Positions 29,125-50,095 of a stretch of 64,000 nt of DNA are shown here, in pieces. A program made the position numbers and the translations under genes. The stretch is from positions 861 to 64,860 of the forward strand of contig JBGGMJ010000182.1 in assembly GCA_041288095.1 (NCBI GenBank), read 5' to 3'. A model generated the notes under the pieces. It did not search any database, was not told the origin of the DNA, and saw only the letters and a list, made by a program, of their open reading frames with translations. How positions within the stretch are numbered: the stretch's first letter is position 1; every line of letters starts with the position of its first letter. This stretch comes from Myxococcota bacterium (GTDB lineage: Bacteria; Myxococcota; XYA12-FULL-58-9; JALHOP01).

Positions 29125-29577
29125 TTAGCGGATTTTTACCGCTAGCTCGCTGTTGCCGATGGCGATGACGTCGCCGTCCGCGATCAGCGCCGACCCGACA
29201 CGCTCGGCATTGATGAAGGTGCCGTTGGTGCTCGCGAGGTCGATGATGCCGACGCCGCCGCTGTCGTAGAACAGCATGGCGTGGGCACGTGAGATCGAAT
29301 CGTCGGCGAAGATGATGTCGGGGCCGCGCTCGAAGGCGGAGGCGTTGAAGGTGGCCATGTTGCCCACGGTCGCCGCCGGGGCGCGCTCTTTGAGATGCTT
29401 CGACAGAATGTCGGCGGCGGCGCTGTCGAGCACGCGATTGCCGTCGCGATCGATGAAGGCCGTCTCGGTCTCGGAGAGGTGGCGGCCGATGAGGCGGCAG
29501 GAGCCGAGATCGATGCTGACCGTGTCACCGTCGTTGGGACCGGTTGTGACCGAGAAGACCGCGCGGTGCGACGTCAT
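29125..29577 (-). CDS. FHA-domain protein
   Basis: 150 aa. CRLIGRH...ISRAHAMLFYD...IIDLASTNGTFINAERV carries the conserved FHA G-R...S-x-x-H...N-G pattern. Confidence 0.75.
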   Translation of the reverse strand: MTSHRAVFSVTTGPNDGDTVSIDLGSCRLIGRHLSETETAFIDRDGNRVLDSAAADILSKHLKERAPAATVGNMATFNASAFERGPDIIFADDSISRAHAMLFYDSGGVGIIDLASTNGTFINAERVGSALIADGDVIAIGNSELAVKIR

Positions 29578-29705
29578 GAGGTCGAGTTCTGACAGACCCG
29601 TGGGAGGCGGTGCAAGACCCAGCCGCGTACAGTCTCGCCGGCCGCCGATCGACCTTGGCGCGGTGCGGCAAGCGACGCTATGTTAGCGACTGGAGGATCT
29701 TTACA

Positions 29706-31511
29706 ATGGCTAGTAGTGCACCGACGAGCTCGCCCAACCCCTATGTCTCGACCGGCGGTTCGTTCGTCCACGTCCCGGTCCTGAGCGCCGAGATCTTCAC
29801 GCCCGAGCGTTTCAGCGAGGAGCAGCGCCAATATCGCAAGACCGCGCTCGAGTTTTCGCAAAAAGAGGTCGAGTCGCGCGTCGCGGAGATCGACGCCAAG
29901 AAGCCCGGTGTCATGCCCGAGATCATGAAGAAGGCCGCCGAGCTCGGTCTCTTCATGGTCGAGATCCCCGAGGCCTACGGCGGCCTCGGTCTCGACAAGG
30001 TGACCGGCATGCTGGTCGCCGAGGCGATGGCGCGCGTCGGCTCGTTCGCCGTCACTTACGGCGCGCACACCAACATCGGCACCATGCCGATCGTCTTTTA
30101 CGGGACGCACGAACAGAAGCAGCGCTACTTGCCGAAGCTCGCCAGCGGCGAGTGGATCGGCGCCTATTGCCTCTCCGAGCCCGACAGCGGCAGCGACGCC
30201 TTGGCCGCTAAAACGGTCGCGAAGCTCACGCCCGACGGCAAGCACTACATTCTCAACGGCACCAAGCAGTGGATTACCAACGGTGCCTTCGCGGACGTCT
30301 TCACCATCTTCGGGCAGGTCGACGGCGACAAGTTCACCGCGTTCATCGTCGAGAAGACGTGGAAAGGGGTGTCGCACGGCGCCGAGGAGCACAAGCTCGG
30401 CATTCGTGGCAGCTCCACCACGCAGATCATCCTCGAGGACGTGAAGGTGCCGGTCGAGAACGTGCTCGGCGAAGTCGGCCGCGGCCACAAGATCGCCTTC
30501 AACATCTTGAACATCGGGCGCTGGAAGCTCGGCTCGGGCTCGATCGGCGGCGCCAAATACGCGCTCGGGATCGGCGTGCGCTACGCCAAGGAGCGCAAGC
30601 AGTTCAAGAAGCCCATCGCGTCGTTCGGTCTCATCCGCCAGAAAATCGCCGAGGCCGCGACCCACATCTACGCCGGCGAGGCCATGGCGTACCGCTTGGG
30701 CGGCGTCATCGACGAAAAGATCGGCGAGCTCGACGCGACCGCGGCCGACTACTCCAAGAAGGCCATCAAGATCATCGAGGATTTCACCATCGAGGCGTCG
30801 GTCTTGAAGATCTTCGGCAGCGAAGCCCTCTACAAGATCGCCGACGACATGCTGCAGGTGCATGGCGGCAACGGCTACGCCGAGGACTACCCGGTCGAGC
30901 GCATCCTCCGCGACGCGCGCATCAACCGCATCTTCGAGGGTACCAACGAGATCAACCGTCTCATCATCCCGGCGACGCTCTTCAAACGCGCCCTCGACGG
31001 TCAGATGCCGCTCATGGAGTACACCGCGAGCATCATCGACGAGCTCGGCCGTCCCGACACGTTGCCCAAGCGTCAGCCCGGCCCGCTCGGCGCCGAAGCC
31101 TGGGCCACCGAGCTGGCCAAGCGCGCCGTCGTCTACGCCGCGAGCTACGCGGCGCAGAAGTACATGCAGGACTTGCGCGAGAAGCAGCTGCTCTTGGGTG
31201 CTTTAGCGGACTGCTTGGTCGACATTTACGGCATGGACTCGGTCGTCGGCCGAGCCAACCAGGCGATCCGCGCCGAAGGCGACGCCAAGGGTGAAGCGCA
31301 CCGGCAGCTCGCTTCTCTCTATTGTTTCGAGGCCCGCGCCAACGTCTTCCAGCGGCTGCGCCGCGTTGCCATGATGATGGCCGAGGGTGACGAGCTCGAG
31401 ATGCTCTACGCCAACCTCGAGAAGCTCGATCAGCGTTACCGCGTCGATTACATGCGCCTGCAAGACGGTGTCGCCGAGCGCATGATCGAGGACGACGGCT
31501 ACGCCATCTAG
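29706..31511 (+). CDS. long-type acyl-CoA dehydrogenase (FadE-like, about 600 aa)
   Basis: The ATG at 29706 gives MASSAPTS. ACAD motifs are GAYCLSEPDSGSDA, ITNGAFADVF, and the catalytic-base region YAEDYPVERILRDARINRIFEGTNEI. A C-terminal helical extension is present. Confidence 0.85.
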   Translation: MASSAPTSSPNPYVSTGGSFVHVPVLSAEIFTPERFSEEQRQYRKTALEFSQKEVESRVAEIDAKKPGVMPEIMKKAAELGLFMVEIPEAYGGLGLDKVTGMLVAEAMARVGSFAVTYGAHTNIGTMPIVFYGTHEQKQRYLPKLASGEWIGAYCLSEPDSGSDALAAKTVAKLTPDGKHYILNGTKQWITNGAFADVFTIFGQVDGDKFTAFIVEKTWKGVSHGAEEHKLGIRGSSTTQIILEDVKVPVENVLGEVGRGHKIAFNILNIGRWKLGSGSIGGAKYALGIGVRYAKERKQFKKPIASFGLIRQKIAEAATHIYAGEAMAYRLGGVIDEKIGELDATAADYSKKAIKIIEDFTIEASVLKIFGSEALYKIADDMLQVHGGNGYAEDYPVERILRDARINRIFEGTNEINRLIIPATLFKRALDGQMPLMEYTASIIDELGRPDTLPKRQPGPLGAEAWATELAKRAVVYAASYAAQKYMQDLREKQLLLGALADCLVDIYGMDSVVGRANQAIRAEGDAKGEAHRQLASLYCFEARANVFQRLRRVAMMMAEGDELEMLYANLEKLDQRYRVDYMRLQDGVAERMIEDDGYAI

Positions 31512-32151: not shown

Positions 32152-32290
32152 ACACGCTCTCCAGTTTCACGCTTCGAGTTGAGTATCGGCGGCCCGGAGT
32201 CTCGAGTTGCCTGAATGTCGTGCCACCCGCGTACATGCCGATGACGGCTGGGAGTTTGCGCTCGTCTCGGAATCCGCCGATGATGCGCCC

Positions 32291-33052
32291 GTGACCCAGG
32301 CCCGCCTGCGTTTTTCCCACGCGATGCTGACTGACGTTGGCCGTGTGCGCCAACGCAACGAGGATATGGCGGACGCCAACCCGAAGAAGGGTATTTACGT
32401 CTTGGCGGACGGTATGGGCGGCCATCCCGCGGGGAACGTGGCGTCCAAGACCGCCGTCGATGCGCTCATCGCTCATCTGGTCGGCAAGGGAACGCGCGAC
32501 CGACCGTCGAAGCTCCGCGAATCCGTCCTCGTGGCGAACCGCGCCGTCTTGCAGCTCGCGGAGACCGATCCGTCGATGCACGGCATGGGCACGACGGTGT
32601 GCGTGCTGTGGGTCTCGCAAGCACGGGCCTATCTCGCGCACATCGGCGACTCACGCATCTACGTGATGCGCGACGGCGAGCTGCACCAGATTACGCGCGA
32701 CCACACCGTCGTGCGTGAGCTCATCGATCGCGGCGAGCTCGCCGAAGGCTCGATGGAGGCGCAGCGCATCGGCCACATCCTCACCCAAGCGGTGGGGCTC
32801 GAGCCACACGTCGAGCCCGACCTCGGCATGATGCCGCCCAAAGCCGGTGACATCTACATGATGTGCAGCGACGGGCTCTCCGATACCGTGCCCGACTCCG
32901 CCATGGCGGACATCATGCGCGAGCACAACGACGTGAAGGCTTGCGCGCACGCCTTGGTTGCCGCGGCGCTCGAGGCCGGCGGCCATGACAACATCACGGT
33001 GCTCATCGTGCGTTGTGAAGCGGCGAAGCCACGCAAGAAGAAGGGCGCGTAG
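32291..33052 (+). CDS. PP2C-family Ser/Thr protein phosphatase
   Basis: LTDVGRVRQRNED, LADGMGGH, HGMGTT, GDSRIY and CSDGLSD...GGHDNITV are the canonical PPM motifs. The likely start is GTG 32291; alternatives are 32207 (track ORF) and ATG 32324. Confidence 0.8.
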   Translation: MTQARLRFSHAMLTDVGRVRQRNEDMADANPKKGIYVLADGMGGHPAGNVASKTAVDALIAHLVGKGTRDRPSKLRESVLVANRAVLQLAETDPSMHGMGTTVCVLWVSQARAYLAHIGDSRIYVMRDGELHQITRDHTVVRELIDRGELAEGSMEAQRIGHILTQAVGLEPHVEPDLGMMPPKAGDIYMMCSDGLSDTVPDSAMADIMREHNDVKACAHALVAAALEAGGHDNITVLIVRCEAAKPRKKKGA

Positions 33053-33910: not shown

Positions 33911-34852
33911 TCAGGCTTCCGAGAGCTTGTGACGCAGCCATTGCGCTTCGGTGTAGGCCAGCGCCTTGTTGCGCGGCACCGTCCCGTTGAACAAACGCCG
34001 CACCGCGTCGGCGCGGATGGCGTCGCGCTGCGCCGGCTCGAGAGCGTCGATGGCGTTGACCAGCTCGCGGGTGAGCGGCGAGAAGCCGTCTTTCCCGGTC
34101 TCGACGGCGTTGATGGCGTCGATGACGCGGGCATGACGCTGGGCCAGCTCACGGGCGGGCGCGTCGCCGAGTCCCTCGTCCGCCATCGCGGTTTCTAGGA
34201 TGGCCTTCACACCGTCGGTGAAATAGACCTCGCGTCCACGCAGGTTGACGAGTCGCTCCCTGGCGAGCTTGCCGATGACCGACCGCTCGAGTGGACGCTC
34301 GATCGCCGCGTGTCGGAGCTCCACGAAGCCTTGGATGTGATCCTCACCAAGCTCGGCGAGGCGCACGTTCTCCTTGTGACGCAAGAGGAAGCTCTTGAAT
34401 GCGTACCACGCCGAGGTCGCGGAGGCGGCGCCGACCGCGACGGCCATGCCGACCGCATGAGCGACGTCGCTCCCCCAGGAGCTGCTGTGGACGTGATGGA
34501 AGCGCCCGCGGCCAAAGGCTCCCGGGACATAGTCCCCCGGATTCGGAGCGCCGACCGCGTAGTAGGTGCCTGCGGCGAGTAAGCCGATCGTCGCGTAGGC
34601 GGCCGCGCGCTGGATCGGGGAGATATTGATCCAAAACGTCGACGCGTTTTTGCCGAAGGGCCCCGTGGCGCGGTCGAGGATGTCTTTCGCGCGCGTCTCG
34701 ACGGTCTTGATGGCGTCGACGCCGACTTGCATTTGCGCGAGCGTCAGTGGCGGCTTGGTGACGGCCGGCGGCTGCCCGTCCGCGATGGCGAGCGGCATCA
34801 TGGCGTGCTGTTCGCTTACGGCAGTCGCGGTCATGCGTTCGCGAGACATCAT
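33911..34852 (-). CDS. orphan protein, tandem paralogue 1 (central Gly/Ala-rich hydrophobic region)
   Basis: 313 aa, collinear by eye with the upstream 312-aa ORF (LTLAQMQVGVDAIKTVETRAKDILDRATGPFGK vs LTLASMQKAVDNLQSAESRARSILTQATRPFGK). The C-termini ...LFNGTVPRNKALAYT and ...LFDGVRPRNKNIPYT also align. Confidence 0.55.
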   Translation of the reverse strand: MMSRERMTATAVSEQHAMMPLAIADGQPPAVTKPPLTLAQMQVGVDAIKTVETRAKDILDRATGPFGKNASTFWINISPIQRAAAYATIGLLAAGTYYAVGAPNPGDYVPGAFGRGRFHHVHSSSWGSDVAHAVGMAVAVGAASATSAWYAFKSFLLRHKENVRLAELGEDHIQGFVELRHAAIERPLERSVIGKLARERLVNLRGREVYFTDGVKAILETAMADEGLGDAPARELAQRHARVIDAINAVETGKDGFSPLTRELVNAIDALEPAQRDAIRADAVRRLFNGTVPRNKALAYTEAQWLRHKLSEA

Positions 34853-35787
34853 GCTTCGTCACCACTCCCGAGCTTCGCGGCCAGCTTGTGGGCCGTCGTG
34901 TACGGGATGTTCTTGTTGCGCGGGCGGACCCCATCGAAGAGGCGCTCGTGGATGTCCTTGGTGATGGCGCGCTCAACCGGGGGCAAGGCGTCGAGCGCGC
35001 CGAGCAATTCGTTGACGCGCGCCAAGATGTCGCCGCGATTGGTCTCGATGTCGCGTATCGCGGTGATGACCGCGCCGTGCCGGGCCGCCTCTTCACGCGC
35101 GTTCGCGTCGCCGATACCTTCGTCTTGCTTGGCTCTTTCGAGAGTGGCCTTCACCTCGGGCGCGAACCAGACCTCGCGAGTCTTGAGCGCCTCGAGCGTT
35201 TGGCGCGCGACCTTGCCGATCGCTGCCCGCTCTAGCGGACGTTCGGCCGCTTCTTGGCCGAGTTCGACGAAAGGCCGCAGGTGCTTGCCCTCGAGCAGAG
35301 CGTCGGCCATGCGCGTTTTCTCCCGGGCGACGATGCGCTCGATCGCGATTTTCACGCCGACCGTCGCGCTGGCGCCGGCGGCCAGGGCACCGCCAAGGAT
35401 CAGGCCGGCATCTTTGTAGTACCAGCTATCCGCCACCCGATGCGTCCAGCCGTAGTAGTTGCTGTAGGCGTAGGCGGAGCCGGCAGGGAAGTACTTGTAG
35501 GCGATCAAGGCAGCAGCGGTGAGGCCCACCGCGCCGGCGACCGCCAGGGGAGCGGGGCTGTCGGCCAGCCTGGTGAACCACGTCTGGCCATCCTTGCCGA
35601 AGGGGCGGGTGGCTTGCGTCAGGATGCTCCTGGCGCGGCTTTCGGCCGACTGGAGGTTGTCGACCGCCTTTTGCATGGAGGCGAGGGTCAGGGCCGGTTT
35701 GACGACCAGCGGGTTCGTCCCGAGCAAATCGAGCTTGGGAATGGCTTGGGCGTGGTCCACGGGCTGCGTAGCGATCGGCATGTCCAT
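34849..35787 (-). CDS. orphan protein, tandem paralogue 2
   Basis: 312 aa with a 4-nt overlap with paralogue 1 and the same architecture. It is divergent from the BMC-P genes across a 140-bp intergenic region. Confidence 0.55.
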   Translation of the reverse strand: MDMPIATQPVDHAQAIPKLDLLGTNPLVVKPALTLASMQKAVDNLQSAESRARSILTQATRPFGKDGQTWFTRLADSPAPLAVAGAVGLTAAALIAYKYFPAGSAYAYSNYYGWTHRVADSWYYKDAGLILGGALAAGASATVGVKIAIERIVAREKTRMADALLEGKHLRPFVELGQEAAERPLERAAIGKVARQTLEALKTREVWFAPEVKATLERAKQDEGIGDANAREEAARHGAVITAIRDIETNRGDILARVNELLGALDALPPVERAITKDIHERLFDGVRPRNKNIPYTTAHKLAAKLGSGDEA

Positions 35788-35927: not shown

Positions 35928-36221
35928 ATGTACCTCGGGGTCGTCATCGGTACCGTAGTGGCCGAGCAGAAGGCCGAAGGCCTGAACGGCCGCACCTTCT
36001 TGCTGGTGCAGCCGGTCGACGAGCAACAAACGCCTCTCGGCCCCATGCAGGTTGCCGTGGACACGGTGAAAGCCGGTCCAAAGGACCTCGTCGTCCTGGT
36101 CGGCTCGCGCGAAGCGGCGCTCGCCCTCGACCCGTGGTTCGTCCCGGTCGACGCGGCCATCGTCGGTATCGTCGACGATCTCAATATCGCCGAAGCCAAG
36201 CGGAAGGCGGCCAGCCGCTGA
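35928..36221 (+). CDS. bacterial microcompartment vertex (pentamer) protein, BMC-P, EutN/CcmL family
   Basis: 97 aa from the ATG at 35928. MYLGVVIGTVVAEQK...LLVQPVDE...AVDTVKAGPKDLVVLVGSREA...PVDAAIVGIVDDL follows the EutN/CcmL pattern (N-terminal GxVV, mid AxDxVGAG-like, C-terminal IxGIVD). Confidence 0.8.
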   Translation: MYLGVVIGTVVAEQKAEGLNGRTFLLVQPVDEQQTPLGPMQVAVDTVKAGPKDLVVLVGSREAALALDPWFVPVDAAIVGIVDDLNIAEAKRKAASR

Positions 36222-36490
36222 TGCGAGTTTGTGAAGTCATCGGCAACGTCGTCGCCAGCGCCCATCACCCCGCCTACGATGGCGCCAAGCTCCTCGTCGT
36301 GCAGCCGCTCGATGACGCCGGCAACAAGGTCGGCGCGTCTCTTTTGGCGCTCGATCGCGTCCAAGCTGGTGTCGGCGATCGCGTCCTCATCATGGGCGAA
36401 GGCAACGGTGTCCGCCAACTCATGGGCAAGGACGCCGGGCCGATTCAGGTGCTCGTCGTCGGCATCGTCGATGCCGTGGAGACAGCGTGA
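36221..36490 (+). CDS. bacterial microcompartment vertex protein, BMC-P, EutN/CcmL family (second copy)
   Basis: 89 aa. [16 protein letters not shown]...LLVVQPLDD...[21 protein letters not shown]...VVGIVDAVE. Its ATG overlaps the stop of the first copy (TGATG). Confidence 0.8.
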
Positions 36491-37227
36491 CCATGCATCC
36501 CACTCAGACCCGCCGCGCGCTCGAAGATCAGATCGTCGCTTTCAGCCACCGGCTCCACACCGCCGGCTGGGTCGCGAACCACGACGGCAACATCACGGTG
36601 CGCCTCGCCAGTGATCGCTTTCTCGCGACGCCGACCGGCGTGTCGAAAGCCGCGGTGTGCCGCGATCAGCTCATCGTCGTCGACGGCGCCGGCAAGGTGG
36701 TCAGCGGCTCATCGAAGCCCTTCAGCGAGATCGAGCTCCATCTCTACGTCTACCGCCATCGGTCCGATGTGCGCTCGGTCATGCACGCGCACCCACCGAC
36801 CGCCACTGGCTTCGCGGTCGCCGGCATTCCCATCCTGACGACGATGATGGCCGAGCCGGTGGTGTCGCTCGGCGCCGAGATCCCACTCGTGGCTTACGCG
36901 CGGCCGCGCACGCCGGAGGCCACCGGTAACCTGGCGCACGCCATCGAGGACGCCGACGCCGTGATGCTCGCGAACCACGGTGCTCTCTCGTACGGCCCCG
37001 ATCTCGAGACCGCTTATCTGCGCATGGAGCTCGTCGAGCACCTCGCCAAGATTCAACTCGTCGCCCGCCAAATGGGAGGCGCCCGCGAGATCCCGAGCGG
37101 CGACGTGAACAAGCTGCTCGAGTCGCGCACCAACGCGGGGCTTGGCCGTGCCGGCCGCAATCGCGTACAGAACGACGATCGGACCGTGATCGTTCGCATG
37201 GCCGCCGGAGCGAAAGCCAATGGCTGA
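36487..37227 (+). CDS. class II aldolase/adducin-family protein (L-fuculose-phosphate-aldolase-like)
   Basis: 246 aa with [24 protein letters not shown] (metal-binding His cluster) and [11 protein letters not shown]. Its GTG start overlaps the preceding stop (GTGA); an alternative ATG is at 36493. Confidence 0.8.
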
Positions 37228-38137
37228 GATGGAGCAACTGGTCGACGAGATCGTCAAGCGCGTGCAGAGCCGTCTCGGCGGTGCGCCGGCACCCAAGCTC
37301 CAGCTCGCCGGTGATCGCTGCGAGACCGGCGTCGGCCCGAATTGCGACACCTGCCGCGGCTGCCACGTGAAGCGCCCCAACGACGTGCGCAACATCGTCG
37401 ACCTGGGCGCCGCCCGCATCGCCGCCGGCATCGGCCACGACAGTCCTCCCTCCGACATCGCGCCGCTCATCGACCACACGCTCCTCAAGGCCGACGCCAC
37501 CAAGGAAGAGCTCAAGAAGCTGTGCGAAGAGGCCAAGAAGTACGGCTTCGCGACCGTCTGCGTGAACCCGACCAACGTCCGCTATTGCGCGGGTCTGCTC
37601 GAGGGCTCCTCCACCAAGGCGATCGCCGTCGTCGGCTTCCCGCTCGGTGCTTCGGTGCCGCAGGCGAAGGCGTTCGAGGCTCGCCAGGCCGTCCGCGATG
37701 GCGCACAAGAGATCGACATGGTCATCAACATCACGGCGCTCAAGGCGAAGGACTACGCCACGGTGCTCGATGACATCTGCGCCGTCGTCGCGGCCTCCGC
37801 GCCCAAGCCGGTGAAGGTGATCCTCGAGACCGCCATGTTGAACACCGAGGAGAAGATCATTGCCTCGTCGCTCTCCAAGGTCGCCGGGGCCGCGTTCGTG
37901 AAGACGTCGACGGGCTTTGGCCCCGGTGGCGCCACCGCCGAAGACGTCGCGCTCATGCGGCGCATCGTCGGGCCGGAGATCGGTGTCAAAGCCTCGGGCG
38001 GCGTGCGTACCACCGAAGACGCGATGAACATGATCGAAGCAGGCGCGAACCGTCTCGGCGCGTCGGCGTCGGTCGGCATCGTCACCGGCACCGCGTCGAA
38101 GAGCGCCGGCAAGGCGAAGCGGGCGGGAGGCTACTGA
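37220..38137 (+). CDS. deoC: deoxyribose-phosphate aldolase with an N-terminal extension of about 75 aa
   Basis: The DERA core runs from about residue 78: [12 protein letters not shown]...GFATVCVNP...VKVILET...FVKTSTGFG (Schiff-base Lys region)...[10 protein letters not shown]. The extension is [19 protein letters not shown]...[15 protein letters not shown]. It overlaps the aldolase gene by 8 nt. Confidence 0.85.
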
Positions 38138-39015
38138 TGAGGAGCGCCCTCGCGCTCGCCATCGTAGCGCTCGGCGCAGCCTGTACGCCCACCGCTTCTG
38201 GAGGTCCGCAAATGCCGTTCAAAGCGCTGGTCGGTCCCGTCATCGTCGCGCATCGCGGCGGCTCGCTCGAGGCGCCCGAGAACACCATGGCGTCGCTCGA
38301 GCACGGAGTCGCCATCGGCGCCGACTGGCAAGAGCTCGACGTCACGCTCACCAAGGACAACAAGCTCATCGTCATCCACGACGATACGCTCGAGCGGACG
38401 ACCGAGGGCAGCGGCCAGGTCATCACCAAGAACCTCGACGAGCTGCGCAAGCTCCACGCCGGTGACCCCAAGTGGGCCGACTACGTGGTGGAGCGGCTCG
38501 CCAAGATGGGTATCGAGGCGCCGAGCTTTGCCGGGAAATATCCCAACGAGCGCTTGCCGACGCTCGAGGAAGTCCTGCGCATCCCGAACGCTCGCCTCAT
38601 GATCGAGATGAAGGCGCACCCCGATCCGAAGGCGTTGGCGTTCGCGACCGTCGACGCCGTGCACGCGGCCAACATGGGCGGCCGCGTCGTGCTCGCGAGC
38701 TTCGAGGCGCCGTTGCTCTTGCAAGCAAATCTTCGTGACTCGAGCATGCCGCTACTGGGCTTGGCCGAAGACGTGAAGGGCATCGAAGCGATGCTGCGCC
38801 TGCCCATCAGCGTGCTCGGCGTGAGCGTCGAGCTCGCTGACGAAGCACTGCGCCTGACGCCCCAGGGCATCGCCGTCTGGATCTGGACGGTCTACACTCC
38901 GCAGGAGGCCCGCCGCCTCGCCGAGCTCGGCGTCCACGGCATCATCACCGACGCGCCCACCACGGTGCTCGCGGAGATCCGCAAGGAGCCCACCGACTTG
39001 ATGGTCGAACGGTGA
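38137..39015 (+). CDS. glycerophosphodiester phosphodiesterase lipoprotein
   Basis: Its ATG overlaps the deoC stop (ATGA). It has the lipobox LGAAC. GDPD motifs are VIVAHRGGSLEAPENT, ELDVTLTKDNKLIVIHDDTLERTT and MIEMK. Confidence 0.8.
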   Translation: MRSALALAIVALGAACTPTASGGPQMPFKALVGPVIVAHRGGSLEAPENTMASLEHGVAIGADWQELDVTLTKDNKLIVIHDDTLERTTEGSGQVITKNLDELRKLHAGDPKWADYVVERLAKMGIEAPSFAGKYPNERLPTLEEVLRIPNARLMIEMKAHPDPKALAFATVDAVHAANMGGRVVLASFEAPLLLQANLRDSSMPLLGLAEDVKGIEAMLRLPISVLGVSVELADEALRLTPQGIAVWIWTVYTPQEARRLAELGVHGIITDAPTTVLAEIRKEPTDLMVER

Positions 39016-39686
39016 AGCAGAGCCCGGTCATCCTGGCGCTCGACGTCCCGGAGCGCGCTCGCACGCTCGAGCTGGCGAAGCTGCTCGGCCCCGAGGTCGG
39101 CATGGTGAAGCTCGGCCTCGAGAGCTTCGTCGCGCACGGTCCGGACCTGGTGCGCGCCGTCGTCGGCATGGGGCTGCCCGTTTTTCTCGACCTGAAGCTC
39201 CATGACATCCCGCGCACCGCGGCCGCGGCCGCGAAGATGGCGCTCGATTTGAAAGTAAAGCTCCTCACCGTGCACGCGAGCGGTGGCGCCGAGATGGTGC
39301 GTGCCTGCCGCGAAGCAGTCGGTGACGCCCTGCACCTCGTGGCGGTCACCGTGCTGACGTCGCTCGGTGACGATGATCTCGCTGGTGTCGGCTTCAGTGG
39401 ACAAGCGGCGACCGTCGCGGCGCGTCTCGGCAAGCTCGCCATCGACAGCGGCGCCCACGGCCTCGTCTGCAGCGCGCTCGACCTGCCGGCTCTCGCGGGC
39501 ATTGGCGGTACGCGCGTGGTGCCGGGAGTTCGTGCGGCCGCCGGCGCGATCCACGATCAGAAACGCGTGGCGACGCCCGCGCAAGCAATGAAAGCCGGCG
39601 CGACCTGGCTCGTCGTCGGCAGACCAATCCTCGAGGCGTCCGATCCCGTCGCAGCGGCGCGGGCCATCAACGCGGAGTTAGGGTAG
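39012..39686 (+). CDS. pyrF: orotidine-5'-phosphate decarboxylase
   Basis: 224 aa with ILALDV, MVKLGLE, FLDLKLHDIPRT and VVGRPI. Its GTG start overlaps the GDPD stop (GTGA). Confidence 0.85.
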   Translation: MKQSPVILALDVPERARTLELAKLLGPEVGMVKLGLESFVAHGPDLVRAVVGMGLPVFLDLKLHDIPRTAAAAAKMALDLKVKLLTVHASGGAEMVRACREAVGDALHLVAVTVLTSLGDDDLAGVGFSGQAATVAARLGKLAIDSGAHGLVCSALDLPALAGIGGTRVVPGVRAAAGAIHDQKRVATPAQAMKAGATWLVVGRPILEASDPVAAARAINAELG

Positions 39687-47145: not shown

Positions 47146-47221
47146 GCTGGCGTAGCTCAATTGGTAGAGCACCTGATTTGTAATCAGAAGGTTGCGGGTT
47201 CAAGTCCCTTCGCCAGCTCCA
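47146..47221 (+). tRNA. tRNA-Thr (anticodon TGT)
   Basis: Acceptor GCTGGCG/CGCCAGC, D-arm GCTC-AATTGGTA-GAGC, anticodon loop TT-TGT-AA, T-loop GGTTCAAGTCC, encoded CCA. One 50:64 mismatch was seen by eye. Confidence 0.85.
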
Positions 47222-47272
47222 GGGCTGCCGTTGTTTGGAACGAGGTTAGAGAAGAAGTCGGATCCGCGAAGC

Positions 47273-47355
<83 letters not shown>

Positions 47356-47386
47356 TTCAGTTCGATGTTGCAGTTGGTGTCTTCGG

Positions 47387-47462
47387 GCGGGTGTAGCTCA
47401 GTTGGTAGAGCATCAGCCTTCCAAGCTGAGGGTCGCGAGTTCGAGTCTCGTCGCCCGCTCCA
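47387..47462 (+). tRNA. tRNA-Gly (anticodon TCC)
   Basis: Acceptor GCGGGTG/CGCCCGC (one G-U pair), anticodon loop CT-TCC-AA, T-loop AGTTCGAGTCT, encoded CCA. Confidence 0.9.
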
Positions 47463-47491
47463 TGCAGTTGGTGTCCAGTTGTTGGTGTTTG

Positions 47492-47567
47492 GCTCACGTA
47501 GCTCAGTCGGCAGAGCACTTCCTTGGTAAGGAAGAGGTCACCGGTTCAATTCCGGTCGTGAGCTCCA
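47492..47567 (+). tRNA. tRNA-Thr (anticodon GGT)
   Basis: Acceptor GCTCACG/CGTGAGC, anticodon stem-loop CTTCC-TT-GGT-AA-GGAAG, T-loop GGTTCAATTCC, encoded CCA. Confidence 0.9.
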
Positions 47568-47675
47568 TTCGAAGGCTTGCATGTGGTGCGCCGGATCGCG
47601 TAAAGGCGGGCGCCCGCTACGTGCGAGCGGATCGTTTCAAAAAGTATTTACTATCGGGCTGGAGGCCCTACAGCG

Positions 47676-48878
47676 ATGTCTAAGGAAAAGTTCAACCGCG
47701 CGAAGCCGCACGTTAACGTCGGCACGATCGGACACGTTGACCACGGTAAGACCACGACCACTGCGGCGCTGACGAAGATCTCGGCTGACCGCGGCATGGG
47801 CAAGTACATCGCCTATGACGAAGTGGCCAAGGCTTCGGCTGCTCAGGGCCGCCGTGACGAAACCAAGATCCTCACCATCGCGACCAGCCACGTCGAGTAC
47901 GAGACCGACAAGCGCCACTACGCGCACGTCGACTGCCCCGGCCACGCTGACTACGTGAAGAACATGATCACGGGTGCGGCGCAGATGGACGGCGCCATCC
48001 TCGTGGTCTCGGCCGCCGACGGTCCGATGCCCCAGACCCGTGAGCACGTGTTGCTCGCGCGTCAGGTCAACGTTCCGTACATCGTCGTCTTCCTGAACAA
48101 GGTCGACGTCGTTGACGACGCCGAGCTCCTCGACCTCGTCGAGATGGAAGTTCGCGACCTGCTCAAGGCGTACAACTTCCCGGGCGACACGACTCCGGTC
48201 ATCCGTGGCAGCGCGCTCAAGGCGATCAAGGGTGAGAAGGACGGCGTCGACTCCATCATGAAGCTGATGGACGCGCTGGACTCGTTCATCCCCGAGCCGC
48301 AGCGTCTGATCGACAAGCCCTTCCTGATGCCGGTCGAGGACGTCTTCTCGATCTCGGGTCGTGGTACGGTCGTCACCGGTCGTATCGAGCGCGGCATCAT
48401 CAAGGTCGGCGAAGAAGTCGAGATCATCGGTCTGACCGAGAAGAGCTCGAAGACGATCGTCACGGGCGTCGAGATGTTCCGCAAGCTGCTCGACGAAGGT
48501 CGGGCCGGCGACAACGTCGGTTGCCTCCTCCGCGGCACCAAGCGCGAAGAGATCGAGCGTGGCCAGGTTCTGGCCAAGCCCGGCAGCATCACGCCGCACA
48601 AGAAGTTCAAGTGCGAGGTTTACGTGCTGACGAAGGACGAGGGCGGCCGTCACACGCCGTTCTTCTCGAACTATCGTCCGCAGTTCTACTTCCGCACCAC
48701 GGACGTCACCGGTTCCATCAAGCTCCCCGAGGGGATGGAGATGGTCATGCCGGGCGACAACGTGAGCATGACGGTCGAGCTCATCACGCCCATCGCCATG
48801 GAGAAGGAAGTTCGCTTCGCCATCCGCGAAGGCGGACGCACCGTCGGCTCGGGCGTCGTTGCTGAAATCATCGAGTAG
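47676..48878 (+). CDS. tuf: translation elongation factor Tu
   Basis: 400 aa: [39 protein letters not shown], and the full EF-Tu domains II/III. Confidence 0.95.
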
Positions 48879-48886
48879 TATTAATT

Positions 48887-48930
48887 GGGGACATCAACCA
48901 TTTACGAAAAATGGTTGGTGTCCCCATTTT
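48887..48930 (+). terminator. rho-independent terminator after tuf
   Basis: GGGGACATCAACCATTT / AAATGGTTGGTGTCCCC forms a 17-bp stem with one G-U pair, followed by ATTTT. It starts 9 nt after the tuf stop and is AT-rich against the GC-rich background. Confidence 0.65.
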
Positions 48931-48944
48931 AGGGTTCGTGGTCT

Positions 48945-49020
48945 AGGCGAGTAGCTCCAACGGTAGAGCGGCGGTCTCCAAAACCGCATGTTGTGGGTTC
49001 AAATCCCTCCTCGCCTGCCA
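48945..49020 (+). tRNA. tRNA-Trp (anticodon CCA)
   Basis: Acceptor AGGCGAG/CTCGCCT, anticodon stem-loop GCGGT-CT-CCA-AA-ACCGC, T-loop GGTTCAAATCC, encoded CCA. It sits in the conserved position between tuf and secE. Confidence 0.9.
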
Positions 49021-49044
49021 CGGAACGCTACGGTTGTTCGCGAG

Positions 49045-49072
49045 AGCAGGCTTCGATGCCTGCTTTCTTTTT
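49045..49072 (+). terminator. hairpin plus T-tract after tRNA-Trp (terminator or processing/attenuation site)
   Basis: AGCAGGC-TTCGAT-GCCTGCT stem-loop followed by TTCTTTTT. It ends only 11 nt before the secE ATG, so its role relative to secE expression is unclear. Confidence 0.45.
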
Positions 49073-49083
49073 GAGGGTGCGCA

Positions 49084-49470
49084 ATGCAGCGAGATCGTTA
49101 CGTCTTCATCGGGGTCATCGCGTTAGCCGCTATCGCGGCGATGCCGTTGGCGCACGCTCTGACGTGGCTCTTCGCCTACGTCGGCGTGGCTAACCCACGC
49201 ATCTTCGGCGACTTGAGCTTGACAAATTTGGTCGCGTACTGCATTGCGCTCGCCGCAGCTTTGTTCTGCCTCCTGCATCGCCCTACGCGACAGGTTGCGG
49301 GCGAAGTGGTCGAAGAGCTCTCGAAGGTCAGTTGGCCGTCGCGAGCCGAGACCGGAAGCGCGACGGTGGTGGTCATCGTTACGGTGGTCATCTGTTCGCT
49401 CTTCCTCGGTTTCTTCGATGTGATGTGGCGCGCCATTACCGACTGGATCTTGGGCTCGGCGACGAGCTGA
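49084..49470 (+). CDS. secE: preprotein translocase subunit SecE (three-TM form)
   Basis: 128 aa. The C-terminal conserved segment is EVVEELSKVSWPSRAETGSATVVVIVTVVICSLFLGFFD. It lies in the conserved position upstream of nusG. Confidence 0.8.
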   Translation: MQRDRYVFIGVIALAAIAAMPLAHALTWLFAYVGVANPRIFGDLSLTNLVAYCIALAAALFCLLHRPTRQVAGEVVEELSKVSWPSRAETGSATVVVIVTVVICSLFLGFFDVMWRAITDWILGSATS

Positions 49471-49489
49471 CGGAATACGAAACGACATC

Positions 49490-50095
49490 ATGATGACCAG
49501 CACGGACAACGAGCAGACAGGCGCACAGGCGATGGCCCCGGAAGGCACGCCCGCGGTGAACCCCAACCTCAAGTGGTACGTCGTTCACACGTACTCGGTG
49601 TACGAGAACCGCGCGAAGAAGTCCCTCGAAGAGCGCATCAAGCAGGGCCACATGGAGGCCCGCTTCGGCGAGGTTCTCATCCCCACCGAAAACGTGATGG
49701 AGCTGGGCAAGGGCGGTCAGAAGAAGACCACCAAGCGCAAGTTCTTCCCGGGGTACATGCTGGTGCAAATGGAGCTGACCGACGAGAGCTGGCATCTCGT
49801 GAAGTCGACTCCGAAGATCACCGGCTTCGTCGGCGACGCCACCAAGCCCCCGGCGATTCCCGAGAGCGAAGTTCGCAAGCTCACCCAGCAGATCGACGAA
49901 GGCACGCTCAAGCCCAAGCCGCGTGTGCAGTTCGAGGACGGCGAGAACGTGCGCGTCGTCGATGGCCCGTTCGCCAACTTCAACGGCGTCGTGGACGGCG
50001 TGAACAGCGACAAGGGCAAGGTTCGAGTTTTGGTGTCGATCTTCGGGCGCGCGACGCCCGTCGAGCTCGATTTCATTCAGGTCGAGAAGGCTTAA
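49490..50095 (+). CDS. nusG: transcription termination/antitermination factor NusG
   Basis: 201 aa with KWYVVHTYSVYENRAKKSLEERI (NGN domain) and a C-terminal KOW (ENVRVVDGPFANFNGVV). Confidence 0.9.
   Translation: MMTSTDNEQTGAQAMAPEGTPAVNPNLKWYVVHTYSVYENRAKKSLEERIKQGHMEARFGEVLIPTENVMELGKGGQKKTTKRKFFPGYMLVQMELTDESWHLVKSTPKITGFVGDATKPPAIPESEVRKLTQQIDEGTLKPKPRVQFEDGENVRVVDGPFANFNGVVDGVNSDKGKVRVLVSIFGRATPVELDFIQVEKA

Follow-up and report, generated by a model that had tools for sequence, protein, structure and literature searches.

A Myxococcota microcompartment deoxyribose-5-phosphate aldolase with an N-terminal extension combining a predicted targeting helix, a conserved four-cysteine motif and a duplicated barrel fragment

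Results

The aldolase gene and its N-terminal module

We analysed a stretch of 64,000 nucleotides from a Myxococcota bacterium (assembly GCA_041288095.1, contig JBGGMJ010000182.1, positions 861 to 64,860 of the forward strand), hereafter the window, and in particular a deoC gene that encodes a deoxyribose-5-phosphate aldolase (DERA) and lies in an operon with bacterial microcompartment (BMC) shell genes. The 305-aa product begins with an N-terminal module of 82 aa, which is made up, in order, of a helix (residues 2-19), a linker (20-33), a four-cysteine motif and a duplicate of a barrel fragment (49-79), and continues into the enzyme barrel (Table 1). In the explanation that we prefer, to which we give a probability of about 0.6, the gene encodes a DERA cargo enzyme of a Haliangium-type (HO) microcompartment, and its extension would combine an encapsulation-peptide helix, a metal-binding cysteine motif and the duplicate. 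The gene joins a known family, the DERAs with an N-terminal extension that are associated with HO and SPU microcompartments.

Table 1. Features of the aldolase gene and of the operon in which it lies (positions are those of the window)
Feature	Position	Strand	Basis and remarks
DERA (deoC) open reading frame, 305 aa plus stop	37220..38137	+	Pfam PF01791, TIGR00126, Foldseek
Predicted amphipathic helix of the encapsulation-peptide type, residues 2-19	37223..37276	+	AlphaFold2, hydrophobic moment, family consensus
Variable Gly/Pro/Ala-rich linker, residues 20-33	37277..37318	+	AlphaFold2 confidence, homologue alignment
Four-Cys motif, C34-x7-C42-x2-C45-x2-C48-HVK-R52-P53	37319..37378	+	Conservation, family profile matches
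Duplicate of the beta7-loop/alpha7/beta8 segment, residues 49-79	37364..37456	+	hhalign, shuffles
Canonical (beta/alpha)8 DERA barrel and C-terminal tail, residues 83-305	37466..38134	+	Pfam, TIGR00126, AlphaFold2, Foldseek
Original beta7-loop/alpha7/beta8 segment, residues 261-291	38000..38092	+	hhalign; source of the N-terminal duplicate
BMC-P (EutN/CcmL) vertex protein 1	35928..36221	+	Pfam PF03319, tblastn, NCBIfam; stop overlaps next start
BMC-P vertex protein 2	36221..36490	+	tblastn, NCBIfam
Class II (fuculose-phosphate-type) aldolase	36487..37227	+	PF00596, E = 2e-46; overlaps DERA start by 8 nt
Glycerophosphodiester phosphodiesterase, lipoprotein-like signal	38137..39015	+	TGATG overlap with DERA
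pyrF	39012-39686		GTGA overlap with preceding phosphodiesterase gene

The barrel looks like that of a normal class I DERA and is predicted to be catalytically competent. PF01791 (DeoC) matches residues 83-290 with 56.4 bits (cut-off 23.8), the NCBIfam equivalog TIGR00126 (deoC) matches residues 80-287 with 267.9 bits (cut-off 117.3), and a Foldseek comparison of the AlphaFold2 barrel with the solved DERAs 5dbu and 6d33 gave a template modelling (TM) score of 0.95 and a root mean square deviation of 1.2 A at 58-59% identity (E = 5e-29). Among 64 homologues D166, K199, K228 and K257, which we take to be the counterparts of D102, K137, K167 and K201 of the E. coli enzyme, are invariant, and the C-terminal Y305 is conserved in at least 90%. 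The mapping of catalytic residues onto the E. coli DERA partly follows PMC11585597, which also reports that a Chloroflexi DERA relative without the extension is active. Solved DERAs that do not belong to microcompartments (210-225 aa) lack the extension and align to the barrel alone.

Reading and translation of the extension

An earlier note on this DNA, made from the sequence, had placed an extension of about 75 aa before the barrel. This estimate proved close: since the Pfam domain begins at residue 83 and TIGR00126 at residue 80, the extension measures about 78-82 aa, with DERA homology beginning at about residues 78-83. The NCBI records for exactly this protein, HSI02852.1 and MEZ0314262.1, annotate a product of only 235 aa that begins at residue 71, as if the true start were downstream, the extension were not made and the similarity upstream were non-coding. 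We consider this extremely improbable. Residue 71 is encoded by an ATC codon, and there is no ATG between M4 and the barrel, where the only in-frame starts are GTG15, GTG50 and GTG56; the candidate start codons of the long form are M1 (37220) or M4 (37229), with GGAG 9 nt upstream of the ATG. The extension also carries signs of coding constraint. Its GC content at third codon positions (GC3) is 0.87 (37220-37450) compared with 0.90 in the barrel, and in comparisons with three close relatives the synonymous to non-synonymous codon differences were 22:2, 17:6 and 24:7 in the extension and 51:11, 51:19 and 76:14 in the barrel. Its architecture is moreover conserved at the protein level across phyla. 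Judging from GC3, codon differences and this cross-phylum architecture the extension is translated, and a downstream start, a possibility that the earlier note had itself raised, was rejected on the start codons, GC3 and the codon differences. The NCBI call of 235 aa is truncated and loses the entire targeting helix together with the cysteine motif; the ENA gene call for the same protein has the full 305 aa. Automated annotation has been reported to miss the extensions of SPU DERAs systematically (PMC11585597).

Conservation and distribution

Of the 120 best database homologues, almost all measure about 300 aa and share the same N-terminal plan, in which the helix, a variable linker and the cysteine cluster are followed by V-x-R-P-x-D-V-R-x-x-V-x-L-G-A-x-R-I-A-A-G and the module ends with D-L-A-x-x-IDHTLL. 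In an alignment of 45 sequences with a mean column identity of 40%, six positions (C34, C42, G63, R66, D79, A81) never vary, and C45 and C48 are conserved in at least 90%. A genome scan, for which the query was an alignment of 10 close extension sequences, found at least 190 relatives with the extension. They belong to Myxococcota (Kofleriaceae, Haliangiales, Polyangiaceae) and to Sumerlaeota, Chloroflexi, Acidobacteriota and Cytophagia. When 1.84 billion representative proteins were searched exhaustively with the extension profile, only 155 clusters at 50% identity matched, and extension-bearing DERAs are a small, specific group within the very large DERA family. The extension that the earlier note had described for this one gene is conserved among the DERAs of BMC loci; it is not peculiar to the window gene and is a hallmark of the whole microcompartment-associated DERA family.

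Part of this family consists of longer proteins. In P0159, P0168, P0183, P0199, P0213 and P0221 (430-516 aa), a flavoprotein-like domain (PF02441) is inserted between the helix and the cysteine motif, giving the order encapsulation helix, PF02441 domain, cysteine motif, AGAxRI element and DERA; one such long form (L085, 10001-11425) lies in a full SPU locus with PTAC, aldehyde dehydrogenase (AldDh), a PduS-like NADH dehydrogenase and BMC-T. Two fusions in which RpiB stands upstream of DERA (P0189 and P0236) also keep the cysteine motif. The helix, the cysteine cluster and the AGAxRI element are retained in all three genomic settings described below. Because these settings keep both the cysteine cluster and AGAxRI, and because the long forms carry their insertion before the cysteine cluster, these two elements appear to be the fixed core, with the helix at a variable distance upstream. 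On the evidence of these alignments, the cysteine motif and the duplicate are a fixed structural element of all microcompartment-type DERAs, i.e. of the HO, SPU and flavoprotein-DERA forms and of the RpiB-DERA fusions.

The helix and the linker

AlphaFold2, run with a 64-sequence alignment, models residues 2-19 as a helix with a predicted local distance difference test score (pLDDT) of about 80. All its hydrophobic residues (M1, M4, L7, V8, I11, V12, V15, L19) fall on a single face of about 140 degrees, and its hydrophobic moment of 0.47-0.57 is like those that the same calculation gives for PduD (0.53) and EutC (0.47). The family consensus of the helix is LDxLVDEITRRVxARL. In the linker that follows, pLDDT is below 50 and neither length nor sequence is conserved among homologues. 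The N-terminal segments of PduD, PduP and EutC, which are validated encapsulation peptides, are likewise terminal amphipathic helices of 15-20 aa with a flexible linker, and the hydrophobic register of the DERA helix (L7 V8.. I11 V12.. V15... L19) matches that of PduD (L L.. I I.. V L). In contrast to these three proteins, the DERA has a further conserved and structured module between linker and enzyme, and its targeting is predicted only. The reading as an encapsulation peptide is also supported by the position of the gene in an HO satellite locus with BMC-P genes. The amphipathic helix proposed in the earlier note is therefore borne out by the moment, the one-sided face, the helix model, the linker, the shell genes of the operon and the literature, and with good support we infer that it recruits the enzyme into the HO-type organelle. 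This feature has already been published (Sutter 2021; Commun Biol 2024): extensions resembling encapsulation peptides were described at the N-terminus of pfam01791 enzymes of HO and SPU microcompartments (PMC8217296, PMC11585597), and in HO genomes some pfam01791 orthologues carry them (Sutter 2021, PMC8217296).

The four-cysteine motif

The cysteine cluster given in the earlier note, C34-x7-C42-x2-C45-x2-C48-H at nt 37319-37366, was found on the translation as C34ETGVGPNC42DTC45RGC48H49. Among the 120 closest homologues, the extension contains exactly four cysteines in 106. Most space them as C-x(5-13)-C-x2-C-x2-C and seven as C-x2-C-x6-C-x2-C, so the first spacing of seven residues is not fixed; it ranges from x2 to x13, with the CxxC-x6-CxxC form in a minority clade. 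In a set of 97 diverse representatives, 86 have at least four cysteines and 64 have CxxCxxC. The motif is also present in SPU-type DERAs adjoining RpiB, BMC-H and AldDh, with the canonical CxxCxxCxxxCP in the Chloroflexi forms, and a few lineages (P0097 and others) have lost some or all of the cysteines. As judged from these counts, the conservation of the cluster is far beyond chance. A profile of the cysteine region built from 59 diverse members gives the consensus C-x6-C-x-x-C-G-x-C-x4-P.

The earlier note had likened the spacing to a reversed ferredoxin motif, which we did not find to be the case. The CxxCxxC triad is followed by x3-R-P, i.e. the normal ferredoxin order, and the motif reads forward because Arg52 occupies the position of the fourth cysteine, the proline is retained and the upstream C34 can be taken as the remote ligand. 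In several SPU-type members (P0183, P0196, P0182, L055) a fifth cysteine stands just before the invariant arginine of the duplicate (G-A-C-R-I), at the position equivalent to A65 of the window protein. Lying 16 residues after the triad, it hints that the duplicate element may be close to the metal site.

A duplicated barrel fragment

The segment after the cysteine motif resembles a part of the enzyme itself. When the profile of the extension was aligned with that of the family's barrel in hhalign, residues 49-79 matched residues 261-291 with P = 7e-7 and a score of 38.6, compared with 10.8 +/- 2.2 (maximum 18.9) in 200 column shuffles. The same alignment was obtained with long SPU and flavoprotein forms taken as an independent set (33.2 compared with 10.5 +/- 2.3), and the extension profile retrieves the C-termini of solved DERAs from the PDB. 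The invariant G63 and R66 of the duplicate mirror the invariant G275 and R278 of the barrel. Given the profile-profile alignment and its recurrence in the independent set, the segment is an ancient copy of the beta7-loop/alpha7/beta8 unit, probably the remnant of an upstream DERA that arose by tandem duplication and was then mostly lost. The duplicate runs directly into beta1 of the barrel. An alternate-frame folding, in which the N-terminal copy would replace the C-terminal unit, is not proposed: in an AlphaFold2 model of residues 1-260, from which the C-terminal copy was removed, residues 62-75 stayed coil (pLDDT 51-57) and did not dock into the barrel.

Operon and genomic settings

The DERA gene is the fourth of six genes with overlapping stops and starts, and through such overlaps the phosphodiesterase gene and pyrF are coupled to it in translation. 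The same five-gene order occurs in the closest genomes, Myxococcota metagenome-assembled genome loci L001-L005, L009 and L014, and the glycerophosphodiester phosphodiesterase is kept downstream of DERA in close relatives. By its gene content, the operon is a satellite locus of a Myxococcota HO-type microcompartment. Indeed, the HO type I satellite locus described in Myxococcota consists of two BMC-P genes and a class II aldolase (Sutter 2021, PMC8217296), and the window has both these genes and a host of the same phylum. It differs in that its DERA lies inside the satellite operon, whereas PMC8217296 puts the HO pfam01791 enzyme at "a different genomic location". The HO main locus encodes BMC-H, BMC-T, a third BMC-P and AldDh (PMC8217296); of these, BMC-H, BMC-T and AldDh are absent from the window, and no BMC-H or aldehyde dehydrogenase gene was found anywhere within its 64 kb.

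The satellite operon is one of three settings in which extension-bearing DERAs occur. In the second, Kofleriaceae-type loci, many copies have no shell gene within 10 kb. On one Kofleriaceae-type metagenome contig (L081, 10001-14915) DERA comes first and is followed by nucleoside catabolism genes in a deo-type cluster (deoA-like pyrimidine nucleoside phosphorylase, purine nucleoside phosphorylase, cytidine deaminase and amidohydrolase). Since the Kofleriaceae DERA heads such an operon, deoxyribose 5-phosphate is supported as the physiological substrate, and the deo operons of relatives agree with the nucleic-acid catabolism that Sutter et al. have proposed for the HO compartment. In the third setting, the SPU-type loci, RpiB lies immediately upstream and BMC-H, BMC-P and AldDh are near; some of these loci additionally encode PTAC and the PduS-like NADH dehydrogenase MNdh.

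Discussion

What the cysteines may bind

The four cysteines most likely ligate one metal centre, for which the sequence evidence gives moderate support, and we lean towards a [4Fe-4S]-type cluster over a structural Zn(Cys)4 site. When all PDB sequences were searched with the profile of 59 members, 4Fe-4S ferredoxin-type chains made up nearly the whole of the 60 best matches (ferredoxin at E = 0.0021, FwdG at 0.0043, PscB and RnfB at about 0.006, then ABCE1 at 0.02-0.04 and PsaC and NuoI at 0.2-0.5), and zinc-containing alcohol dehydrogenases appeared only at E = 3. Run against Pfam, 15 of the 59 members matched Fer4 (best E = 7.6e-4) and others matched Fer4_2, Fer4_4 and Fer4_6. Monocluster ferredoxins have the pattern CxxCxxC-x3-(non-Cys)-P with a remote cysteine downstream. 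The [4Fe-4S] motif of the Fer4 clan and the DERA motif have in common the CxxCGxC triad, a proline five positions after the third cysteine and a remote fourth cysteine. They differ in that the remote cysteine lies upstream in DERA and downstream in monocluster ferredoxins, and in that the DERA motif is one half-motif, about 20 residues long, that is not surrounded by the ferredoxin beta-alpha-beta fold.

Several observations weigh against this interpretation. The extension and cysteine segment of the window protein match no Pfam or NCBIfam family even at E <= 10, and the family resembles ferredoxins marginally (E about 1e-3 to 1e-2), over a stretch of some 15 residues. AlphaFold2 gives residues 30-78 a pLDDT of 40-58 (about 54 in the cysteine region, below 50 at residues 21-31 and 62-75), so that no fold or cysteine geometry can be read from the model. 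Class I aldolase chemistry needs no redox step, and the motif also occurs in SPU loci that already have genes for MNdh, an NADH dehydrogenase, and for the Fe-S shell protein that partners it. The wandering fourth ligand (x2 to x13 upstream, or x3 downstream) would suit structural zinc, and the CxxC-x6-CxxC clade and the losses of cysteines are as in structural zinc sites. As regards the organelle, the window does not contain the main shell locus of the HO type, and for this reason we only infer the link to a complete organelle in the host genome.

A structural Zn(Cys)4 knuckle without redox role, which would rigidify the junction between the targeting arm and the duplicated alpha/beta element, is possible and the less probable of the two metal sites. 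Besides the plasticity of the ligand positions, including occasional replacement of a cysteine by histidine, it would account for a site that is small, solvent-exposed and poorly modelled, on an aldolase without need for electrons, in hosts that include aerobic Myxococcota. There is also a precedent in the medium-chain dehydrogenases (5kia), where structural zinc is held by the mirror pattern CxxCxxCx7C. This lobe of alcohol and threonine dehydrogenases shares with DERA a CxxCxxC with a fourth cysteine seven residues off, and like the DERA site it is non-catalytic and lost in some lineages. However, its distal cysteine is downstream and its glycine follows the first cysteine, whereas the DERA consensus CxxCGxC-x4-P, with glycine after the second cysteine and a conserved proline, is the ferredoxin pattern and not the dehydrogenase CGxCxxC. 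Such enzymes are among the PDB matches only weakly (E = 1-3), roughly 1000-fold worse in E-value than the 4Fe-4S proteins that dominate the PDB and Pfam matches, and the Chloroflexi forms carry the full CxxCxxCxxxCP. The DERA motif thus does not have the zinc pattern of medium-chain dehydrogenases, which leaves zinc binding as such possible. That the cysteines bind no metal and form disulfides or a thiol-based redox switch, or have been kept as a relic of the duplicated beta7 region, seems quite improbable to us. The motif does adjoin a segment derived from the barrel, cysteines have been lost in the few lineages mentioned above, and mis-oxidised cysteines could contribute to the aggregation of the full-length SPU6 enzyme when it is made aerobically in E. 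coli (PMC11585597). Nevertheless, the constancy of exactly four cysteines amid freely varying surroundings, with a lost ligand replaced nearby, is the signature of a metal site, and the CxxC spacing with glycine is typical of metal loops.

Proposed role

In the explanation that we prefer, the open reading frame would encode a deoxyribose-5-phosphate aldolase cargo of an HO-type microcompartment, and the helix of residues 2-19 would bring the enzyme into the shell or the cargo core. The CxxCxxC triad and the remote C34 would ligate one metal centre, and our best guess from the sequences is that this site folds and anchors the N-terminal element, which comprises the alpha7'-beta8' copy and the cysteine motif, perhaps across the dimer. 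That the site relays electrons or has some other redox function is speculative. It is rather unlikely that microcompartment-type DERAs are iron-sulfur proteins in which the half-ferredoxin motif, maybe paired across the dimer or with a partner protein, holds a redox-active [4Fe-4S] cluster that, together with the duplicate, couples the enzyme to the redox state of the lumen, whether as an electron-relay station, as an oxygen or redox sensor or as a gate on activity or assembly. Such a role is worth raising because HO BMC-T has no pore cysteine, because SPU6 belongs to the types in which alcohol dehydrogenase and MNdh are both missing and its NAD+ recycling is unsolved (PMC11626177), and because a flavoprotein-like domain adjoins the motif in some lineages. 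If the redox-cluster reading is true, it bears on NAD+ recycling in the HO and SPU6 compartments, which have no alcohol dehydrogenase and also lack MNdh/BMC-T. As a general substitute for the MNdh/BMC-T electron conduit the cysteine motif was rejected, since one SPU locus encodes both.

Relation to other microcompartment DERAs

SPU DERAs have all been reported to carry an extension of about 70 aa, consisting of an amphipathic helix and two low-confidence beta-strands, and the full-length SPU6 DERA is insoluble in E. coli, whereas its N-terminal deletion is an active dimer (PMC11585597). The SPU6 Chloroflexi DERA and the window DERA share the same architecture, keep the D/K/K residues and often have their extension truncated in automated calls, and the cysteine motif and the AGAxRI duplicate are common to SPU DERAs and the window protein. 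They differ in genomic setting (an HO satellite operon for the window gene; a place next to RpiB, BMC-H and AldDh for SPU DERAs) and at the fourth motif position, which is arginine (RP) with an upstream remote cysteine in the window DERA and part of CxxCxxCxxxCP in SPU6. In archaeal microcompartments of Hodarchaeales, a flavoprotein-DERA fusion is preceded by an encapsulation peptide (preprint PMC12747264). The bacterial long forms have the cysteine motif and AGAxRI between the flavoprotein-like domain and the barrel; the window DERA has no flavoprotein domain.

PMC11585597 treats the entire SPU extension as an encapsulation peptide, with no mention of cysteines, metal or internal duplication, and in the papers on HO and SPU microcompartments that we consulted we found no mention of DERA cysteines or of a metal on DERA. 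What our study adds is a family-wide ferredoxin-like four-cysteine site and a duplicated barrel fragment, both unmentioned in the literature searched. SPU microcompartments are known from 26 bacterial phyla and from Asgard archaea, structural and engineering work on these organelles uses HO shells as its main model, and the extension of this signature enzyme has so far been regarded solely as a targeting peptide. If a metal centre is present, a missing cofactor could contribute to the insolubility of SPU6 DERA beside aggregation caused by the targeting peptide, and for cargo loading and work in vitro the protein should be expressed anaerobically under Fe-S-competent conditions. A possible redox group would also sit on an enzyme whose reaction does not call for one, in compartments for which NAD+ recycling is unsolved. 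If the site is structural zinc, the finding amounts to no more than a modest addition to the annotation of a known family. As an evolutionary trace, the conserved copy of a barrel fragment is unusual and calls for a structural explanation.

Other genes in the window

The class II aldolase of the operon has a C-terminal tail of about 55 aa past its Pfam domain (residues 192-246); for class II aldolases of BMCs, encapsulation peptides at the C-terminus have been predicted in the literature. Between an alpha/beta hydrolase gene and the BMC-P genes lie two adjacent paralogous open reading frames on the minus strand (33911-34852 and 34849-35787; 313 and 312 aa, 43% identity), which have no Pfam match and an apparent hydrophobic segment. 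They were rejected as a part of the microcompartment, with one copy in L001 and none in L003, and are a variable insertion. A PP2C phosphatase (32207-33052) lies further upstream and also adjoins the satellite locus in L001, L002, L003, L005 and L014. Other open reading frames upstream are FHA-domain-like (29125-29577, minus strand; judged by eye) and acyl-CoA dehydrogenase-like (29610-31511). Downstream, a housekeeping cluster (47146-50095) contains tRNA-Thr(tgt), tRNA-Tyr, tRNA-Gly(tcc), tRNA-Thr(ggt), tuf (47676-48878), tRNA-Trp and the secE-like and nusG open reading frames.

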